DNA of 64,000 nucleotides from an uncultured Clostridium sp. (GCA_964612925.1 CAZTFU010000002.1:42196-106195); one strand, 5' to 3'; positions 11,697 through 22,758 are shown, counted from the first letter of the stretch. Notes: a model not told the origin generated them from the sequence alone. Translations and numbers: made by a program.

Positions 11697-12221
11697 ATGC
11701 TGTTGAAAACAGAACGGTTGACGATAAGACATATTAAGGCGGGGGATTGGGAAAGCATAAAAAACTTATGGCAGGATTTTAATGTAAGCGCCCTTTCAAA
11801 ATATGACAGGTCGCACATAACCGACGATGATGATGTACGCTCGAGAATAGCAAGATGGGCTGTGGCAAACGCAGGTACCGAGCATATGTTTTTCGCCGTT
11901 TGCCTCGAAAAAGTCGTTATAGGTTATGTCAGCTTCAACACAAGGAGCAATAATTATGAAATCGGGTATTGCTTTCATTCTGCATATCACGGAAACGGCT
12001 ACGCAAAGGAGAGCATTTCGGCATTGCTTAAATACTTATGCACATTGGGCATAACAAAGTTCACGGCGGGCACGGCCATAGATAATACTCCATCCGTAGC
12101 ATTGCTGAAATCCTTGGGGTTTACATTGATTAACACGGAAAACGTTTCTTTCTATAAAGACATTAACGGGCGTGATATCGTGTTCAAGGGCGGAATTTTT
12201 GAATTGGATTTGGCTCGATAA
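11697..12221 (+). CDS. GNAT-family N-acetyltransferase (RimJ/RimL-like)
   Basis: LKTERLTIRHI N-terminus, IGYCFHSAYHGNGYAKE acetyl-CoA pocket-like motif, NTPSVALLKSLGF. Confidence 0.85.
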   Translation: MLLKTERLTIRHIKAGDWESIKNLWQDFNVSALSKYDRSHITDDDDVRSRIARWAVANAGTEHMFFAVCLEKVVIGYVSFNTRSNNYEIGYCFHSAYHGNGYAKESISALLKYLCTLGITKFTAGTAIDNTPSVALLKSLGFTLINTENVSFYKDINGRDIVFKGGIFELDLAR

Positions 12222-12227
12222 AAGAAT

Positions 12228-12265
12228 AAAGCAATAGCCATGGGAAAAGGTGGCTATTGCTTTTG
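12228..12265. terminator. rho-independent terminator shared by convergent GNAT (+) and M20 peptidase (-) genes
   Basis: GCAATAGCCA (12231-12240) pairs with TGGCTATTGC (12251-12260). 10-nt loop, TTTT downstream on +, A-run upstream giving a U-run on -. Confidence 0.7.
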
Positions 12266-12287: not shown

Positions 12288-13478
12288 TTATTTGCAAAAG
12301 CGGCGTATTGCTTCAAAATAAGCTTTTGCACAGCGGAACATATCATCGGGTTCAATAAATTCTTCGCGGCTATGGCACAGCTCCAAATTACCGGGCCCCC
12401 AAACCACGGTCGGTATTTTGCTGTAATGCGAAAGCAGACCGCCGTCCGTCCAGCAGGGAACACCAACGCAGGACAGCGGCGCACCGAGTACGGATTCACC
12501 CGCCTGAATACAGCACTGCACCAGCGGATCACTTTCTGCGGTTTCAAATCCCTGATGAACATAGCCCTTTTCCATAATACTGGCGGGTAAAACCGATAAT
12601 TCCGCATGAAAATCGGTATCCTCACGGGCAAGCTTATCCAATATGGACTGAAGCTGTGCCGTGACAAGCTCATAAGTTTCTTTATCGGGAAGAAAACGCC
12701 TGTCGAGCTGCACACTGCAATGACCCGCAACCGTGGAGGGCTGAGTGCCGCCGCGTATTACAGCGATATTTACCGTACTTTCCTCCAACAGCGGGTGCGT
12801 GAGCGAATGCAACATGGGCTGCAATTCTTCTTCCACGGCACGAATGAAATGCGAGGCTTTTGCTATTGCGTTTATACCAACGCTCTGACTGCTGCCGTGT
12901 ACCGTGCGCCCGATAAAATCAACCTGATACCATTCAAGACCGCGTTGAGCCACGCCCAAGCATGATGTTGAAAGGGGCTCACCGACTATTGCACCATCGG
13001 CATGTATTCCGTTTTCTATCAGGTTTATTGTGCCAAGACTGCCTTCTTCTTCATCCGCTACGCCCGAGAACACAACATCGCCGCTTAAATCAAGTTTGCT
13101 TCGCTTTGCGGCAATTATGGCGGCCATCATGGTGGCAAGAGGACCCTTCATATCCGCTGTACCGCGTCCGAAAAGCTTTTCGCCTTCAATGCGGGGCGTG
13201 CAAGCGTTTTCCATGTCATAAGGCGGCACGGTATCCATATGTCCGTTAAAAAGCAGTGTGCGCCCGCCGCCGACTCCATTCAGCGTTGCGATAACGTTTG
13301 CGCGGCCGTTGGGCAATTCCTGTATGCGGCAAGGAATACCCTCTTTATCAAATACACTTTTGATGTACTTGGCTACGGCCATTTCCTGTTCGGCTATTCC
13401 GGGGTATGACGGTATGGACACCATATCCATTGTCCATTTTACGATTTCATCTTTTGAAACCGCGAATTCGTTTATCAT
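12288..13478 (-). CDS. M20-family metallopeptidase, ArgE/DapE-like
   Basis: HMDTVP, GRGTADMKG and ADEEEGS metal-ligand motifs. Last gene of the ldcA-peptide transporter operon; 4-nt overlap with the upstream gene. Confidence 0.88.
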   Translation of the reverse strand: MINEFAVSKDEIVKWTMDMVSIPSYPGIAEQEMAVAKYIKSVFDKEGIPCRIQELPNGRANVIATLNGVGGGRTLLFNGHMDTVPPYDMENACTPRIEGEKLFGRGTADMKGPLATMMAAIIAAKRSKLDLSGDVVFSGVADEEEGSLGTINLIENGIHADGAIVGEPLSTSCLGVAQRGLEWYQVDFIGRTVHGSSQSVGINAIAKASHFIRAVEEELQPMLHSLTHPLLEESTVNIAVIRGGTQPSTVAGHCSVQLDRRFLPDKETYELVTAQLQSILDKLAREDTDFHAELSVLPASIMEKGYVHQGFETAESDPLVQCCIQAGESVLGAPLSCVGVPCWTDGGLLSHYSKIPTVVWGPGNLELCHSREEFIEPDDMFRCAKAYFEAIRRFCK

Positions 13479-14725
13479 GCTTCCTCCTTTGCAATGCGGC
13501 GAAGGTATTCGGTATATACCTCGGTTACGCGAATAAAGTCCGCATATGAAGTGTGCTCATTTTCCTCATGCGCACTGCCCTCATCCGTGGGCAGTGTCGG
13601 ACCCCAGCCCACATGGTGCGGAAATGCACTGCAATACGATGCACCCGATGCCGTATAACAGCCGGGTGTTATGTCGAATTCTTCGCCAACCTTATTCATA
13701 AGGTGAATGAATGGCCTGTCGGGGTCAACAAACATTGGCGTTGAAGCATTCGATTTACTTATTATAAAACCGTATTTTTCGGAAAGCACTTCAAACGCCA
13801 GGTTTATTTGCTCTTTTGATGCACCCGGACGAAGCCGTATGTTTATGTTTAATGCGGCCTTGCCGTCCTTTAGAGAAAGGACGGTTGGCGAGCATACGGT
13901 TTTTCCTACATATATGCCGTTGAACGTGTCCGAACCGTCATCTATGCCCAAGGTAACGGAGGGATGATCGTTAGTGAACATATCATTGATAAACCGCCAT
14001 AGTGATGCATCACATGCTTGTTTTGCAAGGTGCAAAATAGCATTATCTCCCTTTTCGGGGGCGGAGGAATGAACGGACACTCCCGTTGTAGTAACAACCG
14101 TACCATCCTTGCGGCGCAAATGTGCAAACGAAGGCACCGTGTTCGGACTATCTCCCGCATAAAGCTCATCAATGTCGGGCACGTCAAACAGAAGGAGATA
14201 ATCGGCATAGCCCTTTTCGGCATTGTAAACGGGAAATGCCGCATCGGGCGAAAAACCGTAATCGGGCACGCCGAATTGTGTCTTATAATGCTCCATATCC
14301 GTCCATTCGCTTTCTTCGCTTGTACCGATGATAAGGCGAATCTTTTTGCGTAGCGGGATACCCTCTTCAACTATTGTGTTCATGGCATGCAGGCATTGAA
14401 TAACGGGGCCTTTATCGTCCTCAACTCCGCGACCGTAGAGAACGCCGTCACGCAGTGTAAGCGTAAACGGGTCGCTTATCCACTTTGCCCTGTCACCAAT
14501 GCCCACAACATCAACGTGTGCCAATATGCCCAAGGTGACTTCGCCCTGACCGATTTCCGCCCACCCTGCATCACCTTCTTTTGTGATGCCGATACGCATA
14601 CCCATTTCACGCGCCCTGTTAAGAACAAAATCAAGTGCCTGTCGGCATGGCTTTTGATCACCTGACAGAGAGGGGATTGCTATCAATGCGGAAAGATCGC
14701 TTATAAGCTGCTTTTCATTTATCAT
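13475..14725 (-). CDS. M20-family dipeptidase, PepV/Sapep-like
   Basis: LAHVDVV, GRGVEDDKGP, GTSEESEW motifs. 4-nt overlaps on both sides. Confidence 0.85.
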   Translation of the reverse strand: MINEKQLISDLSALIAIPSLSGDQKPCRQALDFVLNRAREMGMRIGITKEGDAGWAEIGQGEVTLGILAHVDVVGIGDRAKWISDPFTLTLRDGVLYGRGVEDDKGPVIQCLHAMNTIVEEGIPLRKKIRLIIGTSEESEWTDMEHYKTQFGVPDYGFSPDAAFPVYNAEKGYADYLLLFDVPDIDELYAGDSPNTVPSFAHLRRKDGTVVTTTGVSVHSSAPEKGDNAILHLAKQACDASLWRFINDMFTNDHPSVTLGIDDGSDTFNGIYVGKTVCSPTVLSLKDGKAALNINIRLRPGASKEQINLAFEVLSEKYGFIISKSNASTPMFVDPDRPFIHLMNKVGEEFDITPGCYTASGASYCSAFPHHVGWGPTLPTDEGSAHEENEHTSYADFIRVTEVYTEYLRRIAKEEA

Positions 14726-15723
14726 GTATCCTCCACAACGTGACAGGCAACCTGGTGATCCGTGCCGATATCTTTCAGCATAGGCTCCTCATGGCGGCAA
14801 CGCTCGGTACAATACTTACAGCGTGATGCAAATTTGCAGCCCTCTATTACGGCGGCGGCATTGGGCGTTTCGCCCTCAAGCAACTCGCGCTTGCCCCGCC
14901 TTATTTGACCGGGGACGGGCATAATGTTTATCAGTGCTTTGGTATAAGGGTGTATGCCATGGCGCAATATTTCATCGGCCGTGCCGATTTCCATTATTTT
15001 GCCAAGATACATTATTGCGATACGATCCGATATCAACCACGAAAGAGAAAGATCGTGAGTTATGAAAAGATAGGTGAGACCCATCTTCTCTCGCTGTTCA
15101 AGCATAAGCTTAACTATGCCCGTGCGAATACTTGCATCAAGCATTGAAACGGGTTCGTCCGCAACGATAAATTCGGGTTCCATAACCAATGCACCGGCAA
15201 TGGCTACACGCTGACGCTGCCCGCCAGATAGGGCATAGGGATAGCGGTAAAGATAATCCTCCGGCGGCGTAAGCCCCGCATTAGACAATGCGCATGCAAT
15301 ACGGTCGGCACGGTCCTTTGCATCTGTTGCAATGTTATTGACATCCAGCGGCTCACCCACGATATCGGAAATATACATGCGCGGGTTAAGCGCCTGATAC
15401 GGATCTTGGTATATCATTTGTGCACGGCGGCGGAAAGCTTGCAGTTCCTTAAACGTAGTACCGATGGGGCGACCGTTATAGAGTACCGATCCGCCGCTTA
15501 TCGGTGCAAGCTGCAATATTGCTTTGCCTGTTGTCGTTTTGCCTGAGCCCGATTCGCCTACCAAGGACAGTATTTCGCCCTTTTGTATTGAAAAGCTTAC
15601 ACCGTCAACCGCCTTGAGCACCTTCTTGCTGCCGAAAAGCGCACTTGCCGCAGAATCTTTAACGGGAAAATGCACCTGCAGGTTTTCAACTTGGACTAAG
15701 GGATTATTATCTGTCATGGTCAT
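14722..15723 (-). CDS. oppF: oligopeptide/dipeptide ABC transporter ATP-binding protein
   Basis: Walker A GESGSGKTT, signature LSGGQRQR, Walker B FIVADEPVSMLD. Cys-rich Opp-type C-terminal extension CKFASRCKYCTERC. Confidence 0.9.
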   Translation of the reverse strand: MTMTDNNPLVQVENLQVHFPVKDSAASALFGSKKVLKAVDGVSFSIQKGEILSLVGESGSGKTTTGKAILQLAPISGGSVLYNGRPIGTTFKELQAFRRRAQMIYQDPYQALNPRMYISDIVGEPLDVNNIATDAKDRADRIACALSNAGLTPPEDYLYRYPYALSGGQRQRVAIAGALVMEPEFIVADEPVSMLDASIRTGIVKLMLEQREKMGLTYLFITHDLSLSWLISDRIAIMYLGKIMEIGTADEILRHGIHPYTKALINIMPVPGQIRRGKRELLEGETPNAAAVIEGCKFASRCKYCTERCRHEEPMLKDIGTDHQVACHVVEDT

Positions 15724-16685
15724 ACCTCCTTACAATGGCAGGCAACAAAATGCTTTTCGCCTATTTGACGCATTTCGGGTTCAACCTTGTCGCATATCTC
15801 GGTGCAGCAATGGCAGCGCGGATTAAACCTGCATCCGTTTGGTGGGTCGATAAGGTTTGGCGGATAACCGGGGATTCCGTCGGGAATCGCACGGCGAGAA
15901 TTTATGTTTGGGAAGCACTCTATCAGCCGCCGCGTATACGGATGGGCGGGGTGATTGAATATATCGTCAACCGTGCCTATTTCGGCTATTTTTCCCGCGT
16001 ACATTACAGCTATGCGGTCACATGTTTCACCGAGTATTGAAAGGTCATGCGTAATAAGTATCATGCCCATATGCATTTCACGGCGAAGCTTTTCAAGCAG
16101 TTCAAGTATTTGTGCCTGTATCATAACATCAAGCGCGGTCGTAGGCTCGTCGCCTATGATAAGCTTTGCATTGCAGGCAAGTGCCATGGCTATCATTGCA
16201 CGCTGTTTCATGCCGCCCGAGAATTCGTGCGGGTACTGACGAACACGAGAGCGGGGGATGCCCACAAGTTCAAAAAGATCTCCCGCGCGGTTCCACGCCT
16301 GCTCTTTTGTGAGTCCGTCATGAAGCATCATAGCCTCCGCAAGCTGCCAGCCGACACGCTTGACGGGGTTGAATGCGTTCATTGCTCCTTGAAAGATTAT
16401 GGAAACGTCCTTCCAGCGATGTTCGCGCATTTCTTTATCGCTGAGCTTATGGTAGTCTATGCCGTCAACAAGTATTTCGCCGCCGTTTATGTAACCTTCC
16501 TTTGGCAGCAGATTACATATTGAAAGTGCGCTTGTACTTTTTCCGCAGCCTGATTCGCCGACTAAGCCCAGGCATTCTCCTGCCTCAAGGTCAAAGCTTA
16601 CTCCGTCGACCGCGCGCAGTTCGCCCTTTGTGGTATGGAAATATGTTTGCAGATTCTTAACTTCGAGTAATTTCATGGCACTCAC
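15720..16685 (-). CDS. oppD: oligopeptide/dipeptide ABC transporter ATP-binding protein
   Basis: Walker A GESGCGKST, signature FSGGMKQR, Walker B LIIGDEPTTALD. C-terminal CRFNPRCHCCTEIC. Confidence 0.9.
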   Translation of the reverse strand: MSAMKLLEVKNLQTYFHTTKGELRAVDGVSFDLEAGECLGLVGESGCGKSTSALSICNLLPKEGYINGGEILVDGIDYHKLSDKEMREHRWKDVSIIFQGAMNAFNPVKRVGWQLAEAMMLHDGLTKEQAWNRAGDLFELVGIPRSRVRQYPHEFSGGMKQRAMIAMALACNAKLIIGDEPTTALDVMIQAQILELLEKLRREMHMGMILITHDLSILGETCDRIAVMYAGKIAEIGTVDDIFNHPAHPYTRRLIECFPNINSRRAIPDGIPGYPPNLIDPPNGCRFNPRCHCCTEICDKVEPEMRQIGEKHFVACHCKEV

Positions 16686-17584
16686 CTCTTTTTCAGTTTG
16701 GGATTGAGTATTTCGTCAAACGCATAACCCATTAGAGTAAACCCGAGCGCAACTAAAATAACGCATATGCCGGGTGTTATAAAGTACCACCATGCACCGT
16801 TAGTCATGGCTCCTGTCGAATAAGCGTCGTTCAGCATAGTGCCCCAGCTTGGATTGGTCGGGTCGCCAAGGCCAAGGAACGCAAGTGAGGTCTCGGTAAG
16901 TATGGAGCTTGAAATTATAAGTATGCTTTCCGAAAACACAAGCGGAAAAACGTTTGGCAAAATGTGGCGCATCATAATATGGCGCTTGTTTGCGCCTATG
17001 GATACCGTGCGCTCAACATATTGCTGCTCTTTAACGGACAATGTCTGTGCGCGGATAACGCGAGCCGTGCCCGCCCAACCTGTAAGGCCGATAACAAGAA
17101 TTATATTCCACATACTGTTTCCGAGAATGGCCGCAAGCACCATACAGAATGGGAGCCATGGGAGAACAAGGAAAAAGTCTGTTATGCGCATAAGCAGATT
17201 GTCTACCCAGCCGCCAATATAGCCTGCGGTTATGCCTATAAACGTGCCGAGCAGCATTGATATAACGGTTGCGGTTATGCCCACGAACAACGATGAACGT
17301 GCTCCGCTCATCAGATAGGCCAGTACATCGCGGCCGAGATTGTCGGTACCCAACAGGTGCTGCCATGAGGGCGGATTGAATATTTCGCTGCGGCTTGATG
17401 CTATATCCGTGGTCTTGAATGGCATGATTATTGGGCCGATAATAGCCATAAGGATAAAGAATGCAATTATGAACATACCTATCCGTGCCATCAAATTGCC
17501 ATAGGTTTGGCGGAAAAACTCACGGTTTCTGTTGCGACGAAGCGAACGTTTTAACGCACGGCTTTCGTTGAGTGATTTTGTCAT
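16682..17584 (-). CDS. oppC: peptide ABC transporter permease
   Basis: BPD-type permease with about 6 TM segments and an EAA-like loop (SIGANKRHIMMRHILPN). Confidence 0.88.
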   Translation of the reverse strand: MTKSLNESRALKRSLRRNRNREFFRQTYGNLMARIGMFIIAFFILMAIIGPIIMPFKTTDIASSRSEIFNPPSWQHLLGTDNLGRDVLAYLMSGARSSLFVGITATVISMLLGTFIGITAGYIGGWVDNLLMRITDFFLVLPWLPFCMVLAAILGNSMWNIILVIGLTGWAGTARVIRAQTLSVKEQQYVERTVSIGANKRHIMMRHILPNVFPLVFSESILIISSSILTETSLAFLGLGDPTNPSWGTMLNDAYSTGAMTNGAWWYFITPGICVILVALGFTLMGYAFDEILNPKLKKR

Positions 17585-17600
17585 AATTTAACCTCCTTCC

Positions 17601-18569
17601 TTAATTCTTTACTCGCGGATCTATCAGGGCGTATATACTGTCAGTAACAAAGTTTGTAACGACGACAGCTATTGTCGTTATCACAAAACAGCCCTGCAAA
17701 AGCGGATAATCACGCTTTATAAGCGCCTCATACATAAGCTTTCCGAGTCCTTGCCAAGAGAACAGCGTTTCAAGCTGAATGGCACCGCCAACAACGAGTG
17801 AAAGGTTCATTGCAATAACGGTTATCATCGGCAGCATTGCATTGGGCATGGCATGCTTCATAAGAATATACCTTGTTGAAAAACCCTTGGCGCGGGCCGT
17901 GGTTATGTAATCCTCCGTGAGCACGTCTATCATGGTGCTACGCATCAATATTGCATAGCTGCCAAGCATCAGTATGCCCATACAAAGCATAGGCAGTATC
18001 ATGTGTTTAAGATAATCCTGAATATGCTTCCATCCCGTATAATTGGTTCCTGCCGTGGTTATGCCGCCTGTCGGGAACCAATGAAGGCCAACGCAGAACA
18101 CGAATATAAGCACCATTGCAAACCAGAATGTCGGCATGGAATAAAGCACGAGCGAGCCCGAAAGCAATCCCGTATCAAGTGCGGTACCGCGTTTCCACGC
18201 ACATATAACGCCTATAAGTATACCGAGCACAATGGCTATTATCTCTGCGGCAACAAGCAGAATTACGGTATTTGGAATGCGCCCCGCAATTATTGCAAGC
18301 ACGTCCTGCTTACCGTCATATGTGTTAAATGCATCTCCAAAGTCTCCCGTAAGAAGATCGCTCATGTACTTTACAAATTGCTTCATAATGGGCTGGTCAA
18401 GCCCCGCGTTTGCAATAAGACGATCCTTGACTTCTTGAGAGGTGGTGCTTTTTGCTATTATGGTTGTGGCATCACCCGGCATAACACGGAAAAGAAAGAA
18501 GTTGAACGCCACAACAAAAAGAATGGTGATAATGGCAAACAACAGTTTTTTGATAATATGTTTGGTCAA
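17601..18569 (-). CDS. oppB: peptide ABC transporter permease
   Basis: BPD-type permease with EAA-like loop TARAKGFSTRYILMKHAMPNA. Confidence 0.88.
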   Translation of the reverse strand: MTKHIIKKLLFAIITILFVVAFNFFLFRVMPGDATTIIAKSTTSQEVKDRLIANAGLDQPIMKQFVKYMSDLLTGDFGDAFNTYDGKQDVLAIIAGRIPNTVILLVAAEIIAIVLGILIGVICAWKRGTALDTGLLSGSLVLYSMPTFWFAMVLIFVFCVGLHWFPTGGITTAGTNYTGWKHIQDYLKHMILPMLCMGILMLGSYAILMRSTMIDVLTEDYITTARAKGFSTRYILMKHAMPNAMLPMITVIAMNLSLVVGGAIQLETLFSWQGLGKLMYEALIKRDYPLLQGCFVITTIAVVVTNFVTDSIYALIDPRVKN

Positions 18570-18612
18570 ATTCGAACACCTCCGGGGTGCGGTAATTTAA
18601 ATCGGAATAAGG

Positions 18613-18646
18613 CGCGGGGTGTGCAGCAAATGCGGCACACCCCGCG
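18613..18646 (-). terminator. GC-rich intercistronic stem-loop between the binding-protein and permease genes (partial terminator / mRNA stabiliser)
   Basis: Perfect 12-bp stem CGCGGGGTGTGC / GCACACCCCGCG with a 10-nt loop, 16 nt after the oppA-like stop. Only a weak U-tract follows. Confidence 0.5.
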
Positions 18647-18661
18647 ATTGAGCAGCTTAGG

Positions 18662-20245
18662 TTATGCTGCCGGCTTTACGTTTACGTAAGTGTCTATACG
18701 CTCATTGCCGAATAAGCCCACTCCGTTTGTCGGGTAACCCGTCCAACGGGTGGAAATGGCTTCAACGCTGAGAGAATAGCAGATGATGGAGTAGGGGCAA
18801 TCCTCATAAAGTATGCGCTGGCATTCTTCGATGGCGGCAGCACGCTCCTCCTCGTCAATGGTGGCATAGGCCGCGGCATATGCTTCATCATATGCGGGGT
18901 TGGAGTATCCGCTAGAGGAGTATCCGAGCGTTTCCCAATCCTGGAATATGCACAGTATGAATGCAGGGTCGGCATCTCCGCCCCAACCGTCAAGATTGAG
19001 CTGCCAATCGGGATTGCCATCGTATACGGTATCCCACATGGTGACCTTTTCAAGTGTGGTCCATCTTATCTCTATACCTGCTTCGGCGCAGTTTGTAATC
19101 AGCATGTTTACAACCGCAGACTGCCATGAGCTGCGTTCGGAAGCCGTTATAAGCTCAATGCTCAGCGGTTCACCGTTGCGTTCGCGTATGCCGTCTCCAT
19201 CGGTGTCGATATAACCTGCTTCATCAAGTATCTCATTTGCTTTATCAATGTTCAAATCGCGACGAATATCATCGGAAGGAACATATTTATAACCGGGGTT
19301 ATTAACCATGCCGTAGCCGATTTCGGCAAGTCCGCCATAGCCCATTTCTATTGCGCTTTCACGGTCAAGGCAATAATCTATTGCGTGGCGAATAACCTTA
19401 TCGCCCGTAACCTCATTCAGCATGTTATACGCAAGGTGTTCTTCACCAAAGCTTTCATAAAGCTCGGTATACGCACCCGAATCACCCTGAAGGTTATCAT
19501 ATTGTGTGCGGTCAAGGCCGTAGCAAGCATCAACTTCGCCAAGCTGCATAGCCTGTACCATGGTGTCATAATTGTCATACGGGGTGAATACAAGCACGTC
19601 GACATTGGGCTTTGTTCCCCAATAATTATCGTTGCGGATAAAGGCTATATTGCCGTTTGCACTGCGGGAAGAATCATAGATAAACGGACCGGAGCCGACA
19701 AGAGTATCCGTTTCATAGGTGAGTATATCATCCACCGTACTCCAAACATGCTCGGGCAGAACGGGGATTATCTGGTAAAGCATATCGGGCTTCGGCGTTT
19801 CGCAGTTGAACACCACGGTATATTCATCGGGACATTCTATCGAAGTAAAGCCACTTGCATGGGTTGAATACATATAGCTTTCTATTGCATTTTCATATGT
19901 CCACTTTACATCGGCCGATGTTACGGCTTCTCCGTCGGAGAATACCGCATCGTTGCGCAGATGGAATGTCCATACAAGTCCGTCATCGCTGCTTTCCCAC
20001 GTTTCCGCAAGACGAGGTACGGCCTTGAAGTCATCATCGTAAGCAATAAGCGAGTCGTAGCAAAAGTTCAAAAAGTCATAAACCATGCTCGAAGTTGTGG
20101 AGAAGAAGTTGAGTGTATCATAGTCGCCCGTAATTGCAACCTTGAATATAACTTCTTCATCGGTGCCTGCATTATCACTGCACGCGGTACAAAGGCTGAA
20201 CACCATGACCATGGACAGCAGTATAACTACCAGTTTTTTCATCAA
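18662..20245 (-). CDS. oppA: family-5 peptide-binding lipoprotein of the ABC importer
   Basis: Signal peptide MMKKLVVILLSMVMVFSLCTAC with Cys lipobox candidates. 527 aa, SBP_bac_5-like length and composition. AAGGAGGA RBS. Confidence 0.85.
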   Translation of the reverse strand: MMKKLVVILLSMVMVFSLCTACSDNAGTDEEVIFKVAITGDYDTLNFFSTTSSMVYDFLNFCYDSLIAYDDDFKAVPRLAETWESSDDGLVWTFHLRNDAVFSDGEAVTSADVKWTYENAIESYMYSTHASGFTSIECPDEYTVVFNCETPKPDMLYQIIPVLPEHVWSTVDDILTYETDTLVGSGPFIYDSSRSANGNIAFIRNDNYWGTKPNVDVLVFTPYDNYDTMVQAMQLGEVDACYGLDRTQYDNLQGDSGAYTELYESFGEEHLAYNMLNEVTGDKVIRHAIDYCLDRESAIEMGYGGLAEIGYGMVNNPGYKYVPSDDIRRDLNIDKANEILDEAGYIDTDGDGIRERNGEPLSIELITASERSSWQSAVVNMLITNCAEAGIEIRWTTLEKVTMWDTVYDGNPDWQLNLDGWGGDADPAFILCIFQDWETLGYSSSGYSNPAYDEAYAAAYATIDEEERAAAIEECQRILYEDCPYSIICYSLSVEAISTRWTGYPTNGVGLFGNERIDTYVNVKPAA

Positions 20246-20272: not shown

Positions 20273-21223
20273 TTATGCTTCAATGCCGCTTTCAAGTACG
20301 GTAAATTCCTTCTTTACCGAATCAAGCCGAACTTTTACGCCCAGCGGCAGAGTTGCCATGTCGTTTGTGTGCCCAAGCGGTAAACCGTACATTACGGGCA
20401 CACCAAGCGGTTTGAGGTAGTATTCAAACACCTCTTCAATATGGACATCGGAAAGAAATCCGGGTTTATAGTCAAAAGGAACGCAATTGCTGCATTCACC
20501 TATCATAATTGCGGCAACGTCATCGAAAACGCCTGCGTTTCTTAAATGACTCATGGCGTTATCGACTATCCACGGTTCCGAATCCACCTCTTCGAAAAAC
20601 AGTATCTTGCCGCGGGTATCGGGCTGATAGGGGGTACCCATGCTGGCACATAGGAGGGTTAGATTGCCGCCTATAAGCTCGCCTTCCGCAACACCTTCGG
20701 TTATTGTATGCAGCCACTTTTTTGGATCATGCAACGGGATAACTCCAAGCGGTTCTTCAGTGGTAAGTGCTTTGAAAAACTGCTGCTTTGTATATTCCGT
20801 AAGATCTTCGGGATTAAAGCGTGCCATACCCGGACCATGGAATGTAACAAGCTGAGAAAACTTGTTTATCGCAAGGTGTAGCGATGTTATATCCGAAAAG
20901 CCGGTGAAAATCTTCGGGTTATTGTGTATAAGCTCGAAATCAAGGTGGCGAATTATTTGTGCGCTGCCGTAGCCGCCACGTGTACAACAGACGGCATCTA
21001 TAGACGGATCGGCAAACATGGCATTTATATCCGCCGCACGTTCAAGCTCGCTTGCGGCAACGAAGCCTTTACGAAGGTCAACATGCTGACCCATAACAAC
21101 CTTATAACCCATTTCTTCAATAAAATGCTTGGCGCGTGGGAGTTCCGACGGACAATCGGAAGGACTGGCCGGGGATACAAGGCCGATGGTAGCACCGAGT
21201 GAGAGCTTTTTGGGCTTTAACAT
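20273..21223 (-). CDS. ldcA: LD-carboxypeptidase (S66 family; muramoyl-tetrapeptide carboxypeptidase)
   Basis: GLVSPASP N-terminus, nucleophile motif FTGFSDITSLH, C-terminal GHTNDMATLPLG. The ATG at 21223 follows an AAAGGAG RBS; track ORF starts at 21241. Confidence 0.9.
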   Translation of the reverse strand: MLKPKKLSLGATIGLVSPASPSDCPSELPRAKHFIEEMGYKVVMGQHVDLRKGFVAASELERAADINAMFADPSIDAVCCTRGGYGSAQIIRHLDFELIHNNPKIFTGFSDITSLHLAINKFSQLVTFHGPGMARFNPEDLTEYTKQQFFKALTTEEPLGVIPLHDPKKWLHTITEGVAEGELIGGNLTLLCASMGTPYQPDTRGKILFFEEVDSEPWIVDNAMSHLRNAGVFDDVAAIMIGECSNCVPFDYKPGFLSDVHIEEVFEYYLKPLGVPVMYGLPLGHTNDMATLPLGVKVRLDSVKKEFTVLESGIEA

Positions 21224-21256
21224 ATGCGCTCCTTTCCACATAAATACATTATTAAA

Positions 21257-21287
21257 AGAATAAACCTCGGAGCAACTCCGAGGTCAA
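21257..21287 (-). promoter_or_regulatory. MerR-type promoter/operator for the ldcA operon, which may double as the terminator of the upstream regulator gene
   Basis: Minus strand reads TTGACC (21287-21282), 19-nt spacer, TATTCT (21262-21257). The spacer is filled by a perfect dyad ACCTCGGAG-TTG-CTCCGAGGT (21284-21264). Begins 12 nt after the MerR stop. Confidence 0.55.
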
Positions 21288-21298
21288 TACTTTTTTAG

Positions 21299-22087
21299 CT
21301 ATTGTTGAATAACGGCATATACGCAATAAATGGCCTTGCGGTGACCGCCCACAAAATAGTTTGTGTTTTCATGTCCGTAAAACTTTCCCGTAAGGGCTAT
21401 GCCGTTTGATGCGGCATAATCGATAATGGGCTGCAGCATATTCATGGGCTCATCATTAAAGTGAACCTCGGTAATGAGGCAATGCGGTTCCTGTTCAACT
21501 ATTATATCGTTGCGCATGTTGGACGGTTTTAATCTTACGGACCCGCGAAATGACAAATATCTTTCCATATGCGGAGATGAGTCGTTTTGATCATACGTAA
21601 AGGACATTGAAATATCCATCCAGTTGCCGCGCTCAAAGTCAAAGCAGTTTTTAAGATATTCCGCTATATGCTTGCTTTGGTCATAGCAATCTCGGCGGCG
21701 ATAGCATGGCGGCATTGGGCCAAAGCTGAATGTACCTATACTGCGCATTTCTTCAACGTGCAGCTCGCTCCATGACTGTAACTCGTGCAAAGCATCGATC
21801 TTTTCGCGTATTTCGCTTATAAGCTCACTTTTGCGATGCTCTATGACCTGCTGTATATCCTCAAGCGGAAGCTCATCAACCATAATCGAACGAATATCGG
21901 GTATCGTAAGCGACATGCTGCGATAAAACAGAATATCCGTAAGCTTTAATAAATCCTCGGATGAGTATTCATAATAGTTGTTGTTTTGATTGCGCTGTGG
22001 AGTAATAAGCCCTTCGCGGACATAATAGCGAATGGTTTCCGTGGATATATTCAGTGCCTTTGAAATTTCATTGGCCGTTAGATTCAT
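21299..22087 (-). CDS. MerR-family transcriptional regulator with a C-terminal effector-binding (probably GyrI-like) domain
   Basis: N-terminal wHTH MNLTANEISKALNISTETIRYYVREGLITP, a coiled-coil linker and a ~150-aa C-terminal domain. The start at 22087 fits the usual MerR HTH position; track ORF starts at 22102. Confidence 0.85.
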   Translation of the reverse strand: MNLTANEISKALNISTETIRYYVREGLITPQRNQNNNYYEYSSEDLLKLTDILFYRSMSLTIPDIRSIMVDELPLEDIQQVIEHRKSELISEIREKIDALHELQSWSELHVEEMRSIGTFSFGPMPPCYRRRDCYDQSKHIAEYLKNCFDFERGNWMDISMSFTYDQNDSSPHMERYLSFRGSVRLKPSNMRNDIIVEQEPHCLITEVHFNDEPMNMLQPIIDYAASNGIALTGKFYGHENTNYFVGGHRKAIYCVYAVIQQ

Positions 22088-22126: not shown

Positions 22127-22155
22127 ATTTTATCGCTTCATAGCGGGGAAGTCAA
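22127..22155 (-). promoter_or_regulatory. putative sigma-A promoter of the MerR-family gene
   Basis: Minus strand TTGACT (22155-22150), 17-nt spacer, TAAAAT (22132-22127). Confidence 0.45.
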
Positions 22156-22190
22156 TGCGGGCAAATGACACGACAGAGAAAGTATATAAA

Positions 22191-22227
22191 ACCGCAGCAA
22201 TAGGGGAGTATACCATTTTGCTGCGGT
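22191..22227 (-). terminator. putative terminator after the DUF1653 gene
   Basis: 10-bp stem ACCGCAGCAA / TTGCTGCGGT with a 17-nt loop, followed on the minus strand by TTTATATACTTT. Lies 11 nt after the stop. Confidence 0.5.
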
Positions 22228-22237
22228 CAAAAACATT

Positions 22238-22480
22238 TTAAGTGTTTAATTCTATATTCTGTAGCTCAAACCTGTACTTCTGCTTACACTCGGGATATTT
22301 TTCGTGATCCACCTCACTTAAAAACATGTCAAGCGGTCGAATCCAAAGCGAACCGTCACCGTATAGCTTCCTATATATAACATATTGCTCTCCCGTTTCA
22401 CTGTGGAGTGCAATATCTTCAGTAAGATAATAATTGCCTTTGAAATGGCGGTATACTCTTTTAAGCTTTATTTCGCGCAT
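22238..22480 (-). CDS. DUF1653-like small protein
   Basis: [45 protein letters not shown] matches my recollection of the DUF1653 signature. The ATG at 22480 follows an AAAGGA RBS; track ORF starts at 22552. Confidence 0.65.
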
Positions 22481-22494
22481 TACGTATCCTTTCA

Positions 22495-22522
22495 TAATAA
22501 AACCGAGAGTAACAACTCTCGG
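22495..22522 (-). terminator. putative intrinsic terminator directly after the orphan carrier-protein gene
   Basis: Minus strand CCGAGAGT-TGTT-ACTCTCGG (22522-22503) followed by TTTTATTAT. Lies 27 nt after the stop at 22549. Confidence 0.5.
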
Positions 22523-22548
22523 CTTGGTTTGCGGCGTAAAAGACAGCG

Positions 22549-22758
22549 TCACGCCGTGAGCGCATCAACGCGGCAAATAAGATCGTTGAGCGTATGTATA
22601 CTTTCTTCATCCTCAACTATCAAATCGAGCTGATCCTCGACCTCAAGTATAATTTCGGTAAGATCGAGTGAATCTATACACCTGTCGCACTCACCTTCCA
22701 TGGAAGATTGGCCGGTTACGGCGCAAGCTATCTCCACGATCCTTTCCAGATTTGACAT
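22549..22758 (-). CDS. orphan acyl/peptidyl carrier protein-like protein (69 aa)
   Basis: A DSLD phosphopantetheine-attachment-type motif ([18 protein letters not shown]), acidic helices, ACP-like length. GGAGG RBS 7 nt upstream of the ATG at 22758. The 160-aa track ORF N-terminus is antisense to the neighbouring gene. Confidence 0.65.

Follow-up and report, generated by a model that had tools for sequence, protein, structure and literature searches.

A conserved, probably MerR-type promoter whose 19-bp spacer holds a palindromic operator, between a BmrR-like regulator gene and a peptidase and peptide-transporter operon of a Clostridium

The window, a stretch of 64,000 nucleotides from an uncultured Clostridium sp., carries on its minus strand a MerR-family regulator gene (21299..22087), a 31-bp promoter-like element (21257-21287) and, behind it, genes for the uptake and breakdown of peptides. 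The first of these, ldcA (20273..21223), encodes an LD-carboxypeptidase of peptidase family S66, recognised by the Pfam models Peptidase_S66 and S66C; its match to the NCBIfam muramoyltetrapeptide carboxypeptidase model falls below cutoff. Its start codon is placed at ATG 21223 (MLKPKK), as in homologues and in keeping with the ribosome-binding site GGAAAGGAG (21229..21237), the mechanical start at 21241 being too long. Five genes of a peptide ABC transporter follow (14722..20245), encoding an SBP_bac_5 binding protein (18662-20245), two permeases (17601-18569 and 16682-17584), an OppD-like ATPase (15720-16685) and an OppF-like ATPase (14722-15723). The last two genes encode M20 enzymes, a dipeptidase of the Sapep/PepV family (13475..14725; NCBIfam TIGR01887 at 247.8 bits, cutoff 207.95) and a deacylase of the ArgE/DapE family (12288..13478; NCBIfam TIGR01910 at 222.9 bits, cutoff 217.6), and are followed by an intrinsic terminator, GCAATAGCCA-(10 nt)-TGGCTATTGC and then TTTATTCTTTT (12220..12260). 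All of these features lie on the minus strand. Because stop and start codons overlap within the operon and a clean terminator closes it, the unit behind the element is predicted to comprise eight genes, from 21223 down to 12288. The original prediction, which spoke of an ldcA-peptide transporter operon, therefore had these genes right and the extent too short, as the M20 dipeptidase and the DapE-like deacylase belong to the unit as well.

The regulator, a protein of 262 amino acids, starts at ATG 22087 (MNLT), a position that fits its homologues and a ribosome-binding site (the mechanical open reading frame from 22102 is too long), and its gene ends with the stop codon TAG at 21301-21299. Upstream of the gene, on the same strand, lies a promoter of its own, TTGACT-17 nt-TAAAAT (22127..22155), with an ordinary spacer and no dyad; in the related loci L001-L003 this promoter has the form TTGACW-17-TAMAMT. 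Farther upstream, also on the minus strand, a DUF1653 gene (22238-22552) is followed by the hairpin ACCGCAGCAA-(17 nt)-TTGCTGCGGT with a T-run (22184-22227), which the terminator scan missed on account of its long loop. This hairpin is probably the terminator of the DUF1653 gene and would make the regulator gene a separate transcription unit.

Read on the minus strand, the element between regulator and operon consists, as had been predicted, of a -35 hexamer TTGACC (21282..21287), a 19-nt spacer TCGGAGTTGCTCCGAGGTT (21263..21281) and a -10 hexamer TATTCT (21257..21262), the last of which agrees with the consensus at four of six positions. The 11 nucleotides CTAAAAAAGTA separate it from the stop codon of the regulator gene; the distance of 12 nt first given fits if the -35 hexamer is counted as beginning at the 12th base. 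The spacer is filled by the operator dyad ACCTCGGAG-TTG-CTCCGAGGT (21264..21284, a feature of both strands alike), a perfect 9-3-9 palindrome whose predicted position is exact: it starts inside the -35 hexamer, the last three bases of which, ACC, are its first three, and it ends 1 nt ahead of the -10 hexamer. At its core is the box CCTCGG-N7-CCGAGG, 2 bp from the -10 hexamer and centred near -24; the dyad centre is position 14 of the site, which equals -24 if the -10 hexamer spans -12 to -7. From the position of the -10 hexamer, transcription is predicted to start on the minus strand at an A approximately 7 nt past it (21249..21251).

Within the window, the element stands alone. A motif scan of both strands for TTGAC-N20-TAnnnT with at least 6 of 9 dyad pairs found this as the sole site in 64 kb, and nothing else in the window matches the dyad at up to 3 mismatches, with 0.02 matches expected. 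No second operator was found in the window, whether ahead of the regulator gene, ahead of the M20 gene or elsewhere, and a promoter scan found no other promoter-like site between the regulator gene and ldcA. Perfect stem-loops with arms of at least 9 bp are nothing unusual in themselves, occurring at 5 distinct places in the window, as against 1.7 expected from shuffles; we used this direct count instead of the inverted-repeat listing for the window, which was dominated by short overlapping palindromes and hence uninformative.

The regulator resembles known MerR proteins by sequence only in its DNA-binding part. Pfam MerR_1/MerR covers residues 9-74 only, and residues 115-262 have no Pfam or NCBIfam match. 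HspR, TnrA and others are among the weak N-terminal NCBIfam matches, and the name ‘choline utilization activator’, given by another NCBIfam model, was rejected, as that match spans only the N-terminal 112 residues and lies far under cutoff. Similarly, a profile search of PDB sequences recovered N-terminal regions only, those of EcmrR, Mta, BrlR, CueR and BmrR. The AlphaFold (AF2) model, built on an alignment, has a pLDDT of 89.6 and consists of a winged helix-turn-helix (HTH), a long helix at residues 75-116 and an alpha/beta C-terminal domain. In a Foldseek search of the PDB with this model, the top eight matches are all full-length BmrR (E 1e-12, TM ~0.6, 16-17% identity), followed by BrlR and EcmrR; the isolated GyrI-like domains BmrR-C (1bow), EcmrR-C (6wl5) and BrlR-C (5xbi), along with CTR107 and SOUL, are found at E 4e-4 to 2e-3. 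The C-terminal ligand-binding domain that the original prediction had assigned to the regulator is thus borne out by the match to full-length BmrR, GyrI-like domain included. The regulator has the winged HTH of the BmrR class and its long helix of an antiparallel, dimerising coiled coil, and its C-terminal domain is predicted to be GyrI-like, by structure prediction and fold search only. The DNA-reading residues E17, R20, Y22, N36, Y38, Y41, S42 and S43 are invariant across the family of its relatives. Farther along the protein, H140, Y237, E240, R250 and Y257 are invariant as well.

This family carries the element with it. A protein search with the regulator gave 56 homologues at 35-95% identity and a genome scan gave 51 loci, mostly from Anaerovoracaceae and other Clostridia. 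In the DNA 3′ of the regulator stop codon, most loci contain the family motif TTGACC-TCGnn-nnn-nnCGA-GGTT-TAnnnT, down to 39% regulator identity. Counted by motif scan, the window and 49 genome loci, with regulators 39-77% identical, hold 55 sites, 44 of them distinct. The spacer measures 19 nt in every one of these sites (55/55), and likewise in all family sites from metagenomes and extra contigs. All but one of the motif-scan sites share the orientation of the regulator gene, and in every case the site points at the downstream gene. Of the 49 genome loci with a gene for a full-length relative, approximately 45 have regulator and site together; L020, L033 and L041 have a regulator homologue without an adjacent site.

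As the motif scan itself imposed TTGAC and TA...T, the sites were located afresh from the strongest hairpin of each locus, with no other criterion. In approximately 35 of 49 loci, the dyad is that hairpin, and every dyad anchored in this way has TTG directly on its 5′ side and T-TA-nnn-T on its 3′ side, at fixed offsets. The -10 hexamers of the relatives read TATAAT, TATACT, TATATT or TATTAT, compared with TATTCT in the window. The flanking DNA differs between loci, as does the downstream gene, and the intergenic alignment of the ldcA clade shows conservation of nothing but the 31-mer and the ribosome-binding site, the latter with an invariant GAAAGGA. Four further contigs, with regulators of 75-82% identity and the ldcA or SBP gene kept, also carry the site. 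In a check set beforehand, dyad and spacer proved to be kept in all eight relatives (8/8) in which the regulator stands beside an ldcA or SBP gene (L001-L004, L172-L175). A DNA-pattern scan of metagenomes with 16 specified bases returned 120 hits, mostly chance matches; filtering on the unspecified dyad pairs and the -10 hexamer left 36, of which approximately 20 belong to this family and lie on independent contigs in the order regulator-site-M20. Because the same element adjoins homologous regulators in dozens of unrelated contigs, we set a chance origin aside and take the element to be beyond chance. An invariant 19-nt spacer with a dyad centred near -24, next to a MerR-family gene and its homologues down to 39% identity and amid diverged flanks, supports the MerR-style reading originally proposed, and the 31 bp are, in our judgement, very probably a strongly conserved MerR-type promoter with a palindromic operator.

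Across the 44 distinct sites, the outer pairs of the dyad are invariant, and pairs 7/21, 8/20, 10/18 and 11/17 change on both sides. Position 11 of the site follows residue 24 of the regulator: among 39 pairs, R24 occurs with A in 16 of 16 and Q, D or N24 with G in 17 of 19, counts in which related pairs are treated as independent and phylogeny is ignored. This correspondence suggests co-evolution between the inner dyad and the end of the recognition helix, which would read it. In window coordinates, the codon for residue 24 is at approximately 22018-22016 and site position 11 at 21277.

Several loci vary the arrangement of regulator and site. In two (L019:4813 and L025:1644), the -35 hexamer contains the TGA stop codon of the regulator gene (T-TGA-CC), and the coding sequence thereby overlaps the promoter of the target. 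Two others have two sites each (L038:3937 and 4797; L039:3939 and 4825), a weaker one with a TTGACA -35 hexamer and a 7/9 dyad before the regulator gene, and a perfect one behind it, before the dipeptidase gene, which implies that this lineage would combine autoregulation with control of the target. In one lineage, represented by three independent metagenome-assembled genomes (MAGs), regulator and M20 dipeptidase form an in-frame fusion, a single 712-residue open reading frame (L034:4001-6139, L035:4001-6139 and L036:4001-6139), with MerR_1 at residues 3-70 and Peptidase_M20 at 343-701 and a site at approximately 3947 in each. The fusion junction keeps an SD-like GGAG and an ATG, and the fused peptidase might also be made on its own; in the related loci L028 and L031, the genes are separate, with a stop codon followed by 1-7 nt.

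A similar frame, TTGACC...GGTTTA with a 19-nt spacer and a perfect dyad, is also found in three types of unrelated MerR-type module (L055, L135, L158; L062, L110, L151, L154, L156; L056, L064, L066, L080). In one type, the element stands before a 273-residue MerR gene and ABC-like genes. In another, it overlaps the stop codon of a 288-residue MerR-like gene and precedes a 740-residue lipoprotein, which is again a tandem layout of regulator, site and target, and in the third it precedes a 402-residue protein.

The genes behind the site differ among members of the family. A Sapep/PepV-type M20 dipeptidase follows the site in approximately 35 genome loci, a YfcC/DcuC-type carrier stands behind a second copy of the site in six, and the regulator gene itself is behind the site in seven; ldcA is found there in the clade of the window. 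The DapE-like deacylase is also downstream of the site in L014, L022, L024 and L155, and L014 has the same gene set as the operon of the window, in the order M20-dapE-ldcA-SBP. Judging from these gene neighbourhoods, the conserved target of the regulator family would be the M20 dipeptidase and not ldcA, with ldcA and the importer as clade-specific additions to the regulated unit. The control of multidrug efflux pumps in answer to lipophilic cationic drugs is a functional habit of the known BmrR-class members and not a structural criterion of the class; the genes behind the site encode M20 dipeptidase, YfcC-type carrier, LdcA, peptide ABC importer and DapE-like deacylase, with no multidrug efflux pump among them.

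In ordinary sigma-70 promoters, the spacer measures 17 ± 1 bp. By comparison, all 28 of 28 experimentally confirmed MerR-type promoters have spacers of 19-20 bp (PMC7722741), and the long spacer is essential for MerR-type activation (PMC9909328), as it is for the induction of merT according to the account of Parkhill and Brown (1990) given in PMC9909328. In the best structural parallel, BmrR, the operator is kinked at its centre, -24 (PMC7722741). BmrR of Bacillus subtilis, EcmrR and BrlR, which belong to the multidrug-sensing subgroup of MerR proteins, share the three-part architecture of our regulator over its full length, and the bmr promoter, also a Firmicute sigma-A promoter, likewise has a 19-bp spacer filled by a long palindrome that begins within the -35 hexamer, with the operator centred near -24. 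The two systems differ in that identity is only 16-17% and the GyrI-like domain of the window regulator is too divergent for Pfam; in the target, which consists of peptidases and peptide or amino-acid transporters instead of an efflux pump; and in the layout, with the window regulator directly upstream in tandem and the operator 11 nt past its stop codon.

A parallel at the level of the DNA is CueR, whose box CCTTCC-N7-GGAAGG lies 2 bp from the -10 hexamer in a 19-bp spacer and for which a 1-bp shift impairs activation (PMC8169799). The window element has the same 6-N7-6 repeat as Escherichia coli PcopA (CCTCGG-N7-CCGAGG against CCTTCC-N7-GGAAGG), at the same 2 bp from the -10 hexamer and with the same 19-bp spacer. 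PcopA presumably also has a TTGACC -35 hexamer and a GGTTTA junction, as here. As a protein, CueR differs from the window regulator in being a short metal sensor without a GyrI-like domain that senses Cu(I) and controls a copper ATPase. With the prototype of the family, MerR/merT of Tn21/Tn501, the locus shares a dyad operator in a 19-bp spacer; the mer regulator, however, is divergent from its target and autoregulates via the same operator, whereas the regulator gene of the window runs in the same direction as its target, from a promoter of its own with a 17-bp spacer.

The gene content has parallels of its own. In murein-peptide salvage loci such as E. coli ldcA/mpp-opp and B. subtilis dpp-ykfABCD, an LdcA homologue occurs together with a peptide ABC importer, and the operon resembles these loci in combining an LD-carboxypeptidase, an Opp/Dpp-type importer and downstream peptidases. 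We know of no MerR-type activator control of either of these loci.

Together, these comparisons point to a textbook MerR mechanism. The promoter would be of the sigma-A/sigma-70 type, with hexamers 19 bp apart, 2 bp over what RNA polymerase can use, and the gap would be occupied by a palindrome, the operator of the regulator whose gene lies directly upstream. This BmrR-class regulator would be made constitutively from its own promoter with a 17-bp spacer and, by analogy with BmrR and CueR, its dimer would sit on the dyad, on the face of the DNA opposite RNA polymerase. With no ligand, the promoter would be off; a ligand in the GyrI-like pocket would cause the dimer to kink and under-twist the spacer around -24, which would bring the -35 and -10 hexamers into register. 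Transcription would then start near 21250, giving a 5′ untranslated region of approximately 27 nt before ATG 21223, and the output would be the uptake and breakdown of small peptides, possibly from the cell wall. We put the probability that the element is a MerR-type promoter activated by DNA distortion at roughly 0.85, where binding, activation, start site and ligand identity are what we infer from the characterised systems. Most likely, then, the BmrR-like regulator would switch on the eight-gene peptide-uptake and peptidase operon via this element.

The dyad may have a second use, which would add to the promoter reading. As RNA, it would form a G+C-rich hairpin of 9-10 bp with a 3-nt loop, followed by UUUAUUCUUUU (21253..21285, minus strand), a candidate intrinsic terminator of the regulator gene. 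If the hairpin and the U-rich tract end the regulator transcript, the operon would be insulated from constitutive read-through, and the promoter would be nested inside a terminator. The terminator scan scores the element on both strands, with a 10-pair stem, 6 G-C pairs, a 3-nt loop and the tail TATTCTTTTA; the RNA hairpin has a dG of -19.6 kcal/mol (z = -4.8), stands 11 nt after the regulator stop codon and is the only hairpin between that codon and ldcA. Its 12-nt tail TTTATTCTTTTA (21253-21264) recurs unchanged at the terminator that closes the operon. An ordinary terminator ends the regulator genes of L043, where the site is elsewhere, and of L033, which has no detected site. Copies behind the regulator gene also differ from those in front of it, the hairpins being stronger (mean -12.8 versus -4.9 kcal/mol) and the bases after the -10 hexamer richer in T (4.5 of 6 versus 2.6-3.1; Mann-Whitney p = 1.4e-4). 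The 32 distinct dyads behind the regulator contain 12 G.U pairs on the sense strand versus 1 A.C (binomial p = 0.0017), a bias not seen in front of it, where there are 2 G.U, 4 A.C and 5 transversions. Because the sites are phylogenetically related, these p-values are optimistic.

Other features count against a terminator role. Other MerR subfamilies have perfect dyads in this frame where there is nothing to terminate, an example being L158 with its divergent upstream gene; a perfect dyad therefore belongs to the operator as such. The G.U cases lie for the most part at pair 7/21, whose T is adjacent to the -35 hexamer and may be fixed by the needs of the promoter. The run of U is broken (UUUAUUCUUUU), with the extra T-run 8-13 nt past the stem, beyond the usual release point, and a 3-nt loop is tight. 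Compensatory changes in the dyad were rejected as proof of an RNA hairpin, as the operator of a homodimer is symmetric anyway, the inner dyad tracks recognition-helix residue 24 at position 11, such that protein-DNA co-evolution can explain the symmetric covariation, and L158 has a perfect dyad too. The suggestion that the same hairpin terminates the regulator transcript is accordingly plausible and unproven: scan, dG, tail and context statistics lend it some support, and we consider the odds of dual use about even. A terminator role could account for part of the conservation of the element. The broader combination, in which the dyad would be under selection both as DNA operator and promoter and as RNA terminator, and the BmrR-class regulators would respond not to drugs but to a peptide or a metabolite derived from the cell wall, is a tentative proposal that we hold a little below even.

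A much less probable alternative keeps the dyad as the operator and has the regulator only repress a weak promoter, in the manner of HspR or GlnR, with no activation by DNA distortion. Members of the MerR family without an activating mode exist, namely the plain repressors of the HspR and GlnR/TnrA types, and because of them the activating mode is read from spacer length only. Apo-MerR proteins do repress as well (PMC9909328). An operator for mere repression, however, would need no disabled spacer, and the spacer is 19 nt in all family sites as against 17 in the regulator's own promoter; the full-length fold, moreover, is that of BmrR, EcmrR and BrlR, all of which are ligand-dependent activators. 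We therefore consider repression alone quite unlikely.

Least probable of all, to the point of near-dismissal, is that the element is only the intrinsic terminator of the regulator gene and that its resemblance to -35 and -10 hexamers is coincidental: it does have what is expected of a terminator and lies 11 nt past a stop codon, but terminators keep no primary sequence between proteins 39-77% identical, whereas here the sequence and the ends of the stem are conserved, together with the outlying TTG and the TAnnnT that follows, at constant spacing in divergent loci and several gene contexts, the element stands before the regulator gene in seven loci and, as a second copy, before the YfcC-type carrier, and its geometry equals that of characterised MerR promoters to the base pair. 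The same conservation of stem and outlying hexamers led us to reject chance.

The gene content of the window operon suggests small peptides, possibly murein-derived, as the signal, and the family core of dipeptidase and YfcC-type carrier points to a simpler signal, peptide or amino-acid-related. Dipeptides or murein peptides are the candidate ligand class; a cell-wall fragment as the ligand is speculation, and a lipophilic cation is unlikely.

Literature searches for a dipeptidase or an LdcA operon under MerR control, and for terminator activity of MerR operators, returned nothing specific. The mechanism is textbook MerR, and current understanding is therefore not overturned; the subfamily itself is new, as are its operator motif and peptide-catabolic regulon. 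These define a previously undescribed BmrR-like MerR subfamily in Anaerovoracaceae and related gut Clostridia, with a regulon of Sapep/PepV dipeptidase and YfcC-type carrier to which some clades add LdcA, a peptide ABC importer and the DapE-like deacylase. The tandem layout offers a natural case for asking if a MerR operator doubles as a terminator; should the dual role hold, it would amount to a compact, insulated tandem module of regulator and target across a regulator family of gut anaerobes. Two cultured carriers of the same module, Emergencia timonensis SN18 (L010) and Aminicella lysinilytica DSM 28287 (L009), make these predictions directly testable. More generally, with this subfamily the ‘multidrug-sensor’ architecture would reach into the catabolism of nutrients and peptides by asaccharolytic anaerobes that ferment amino acids.
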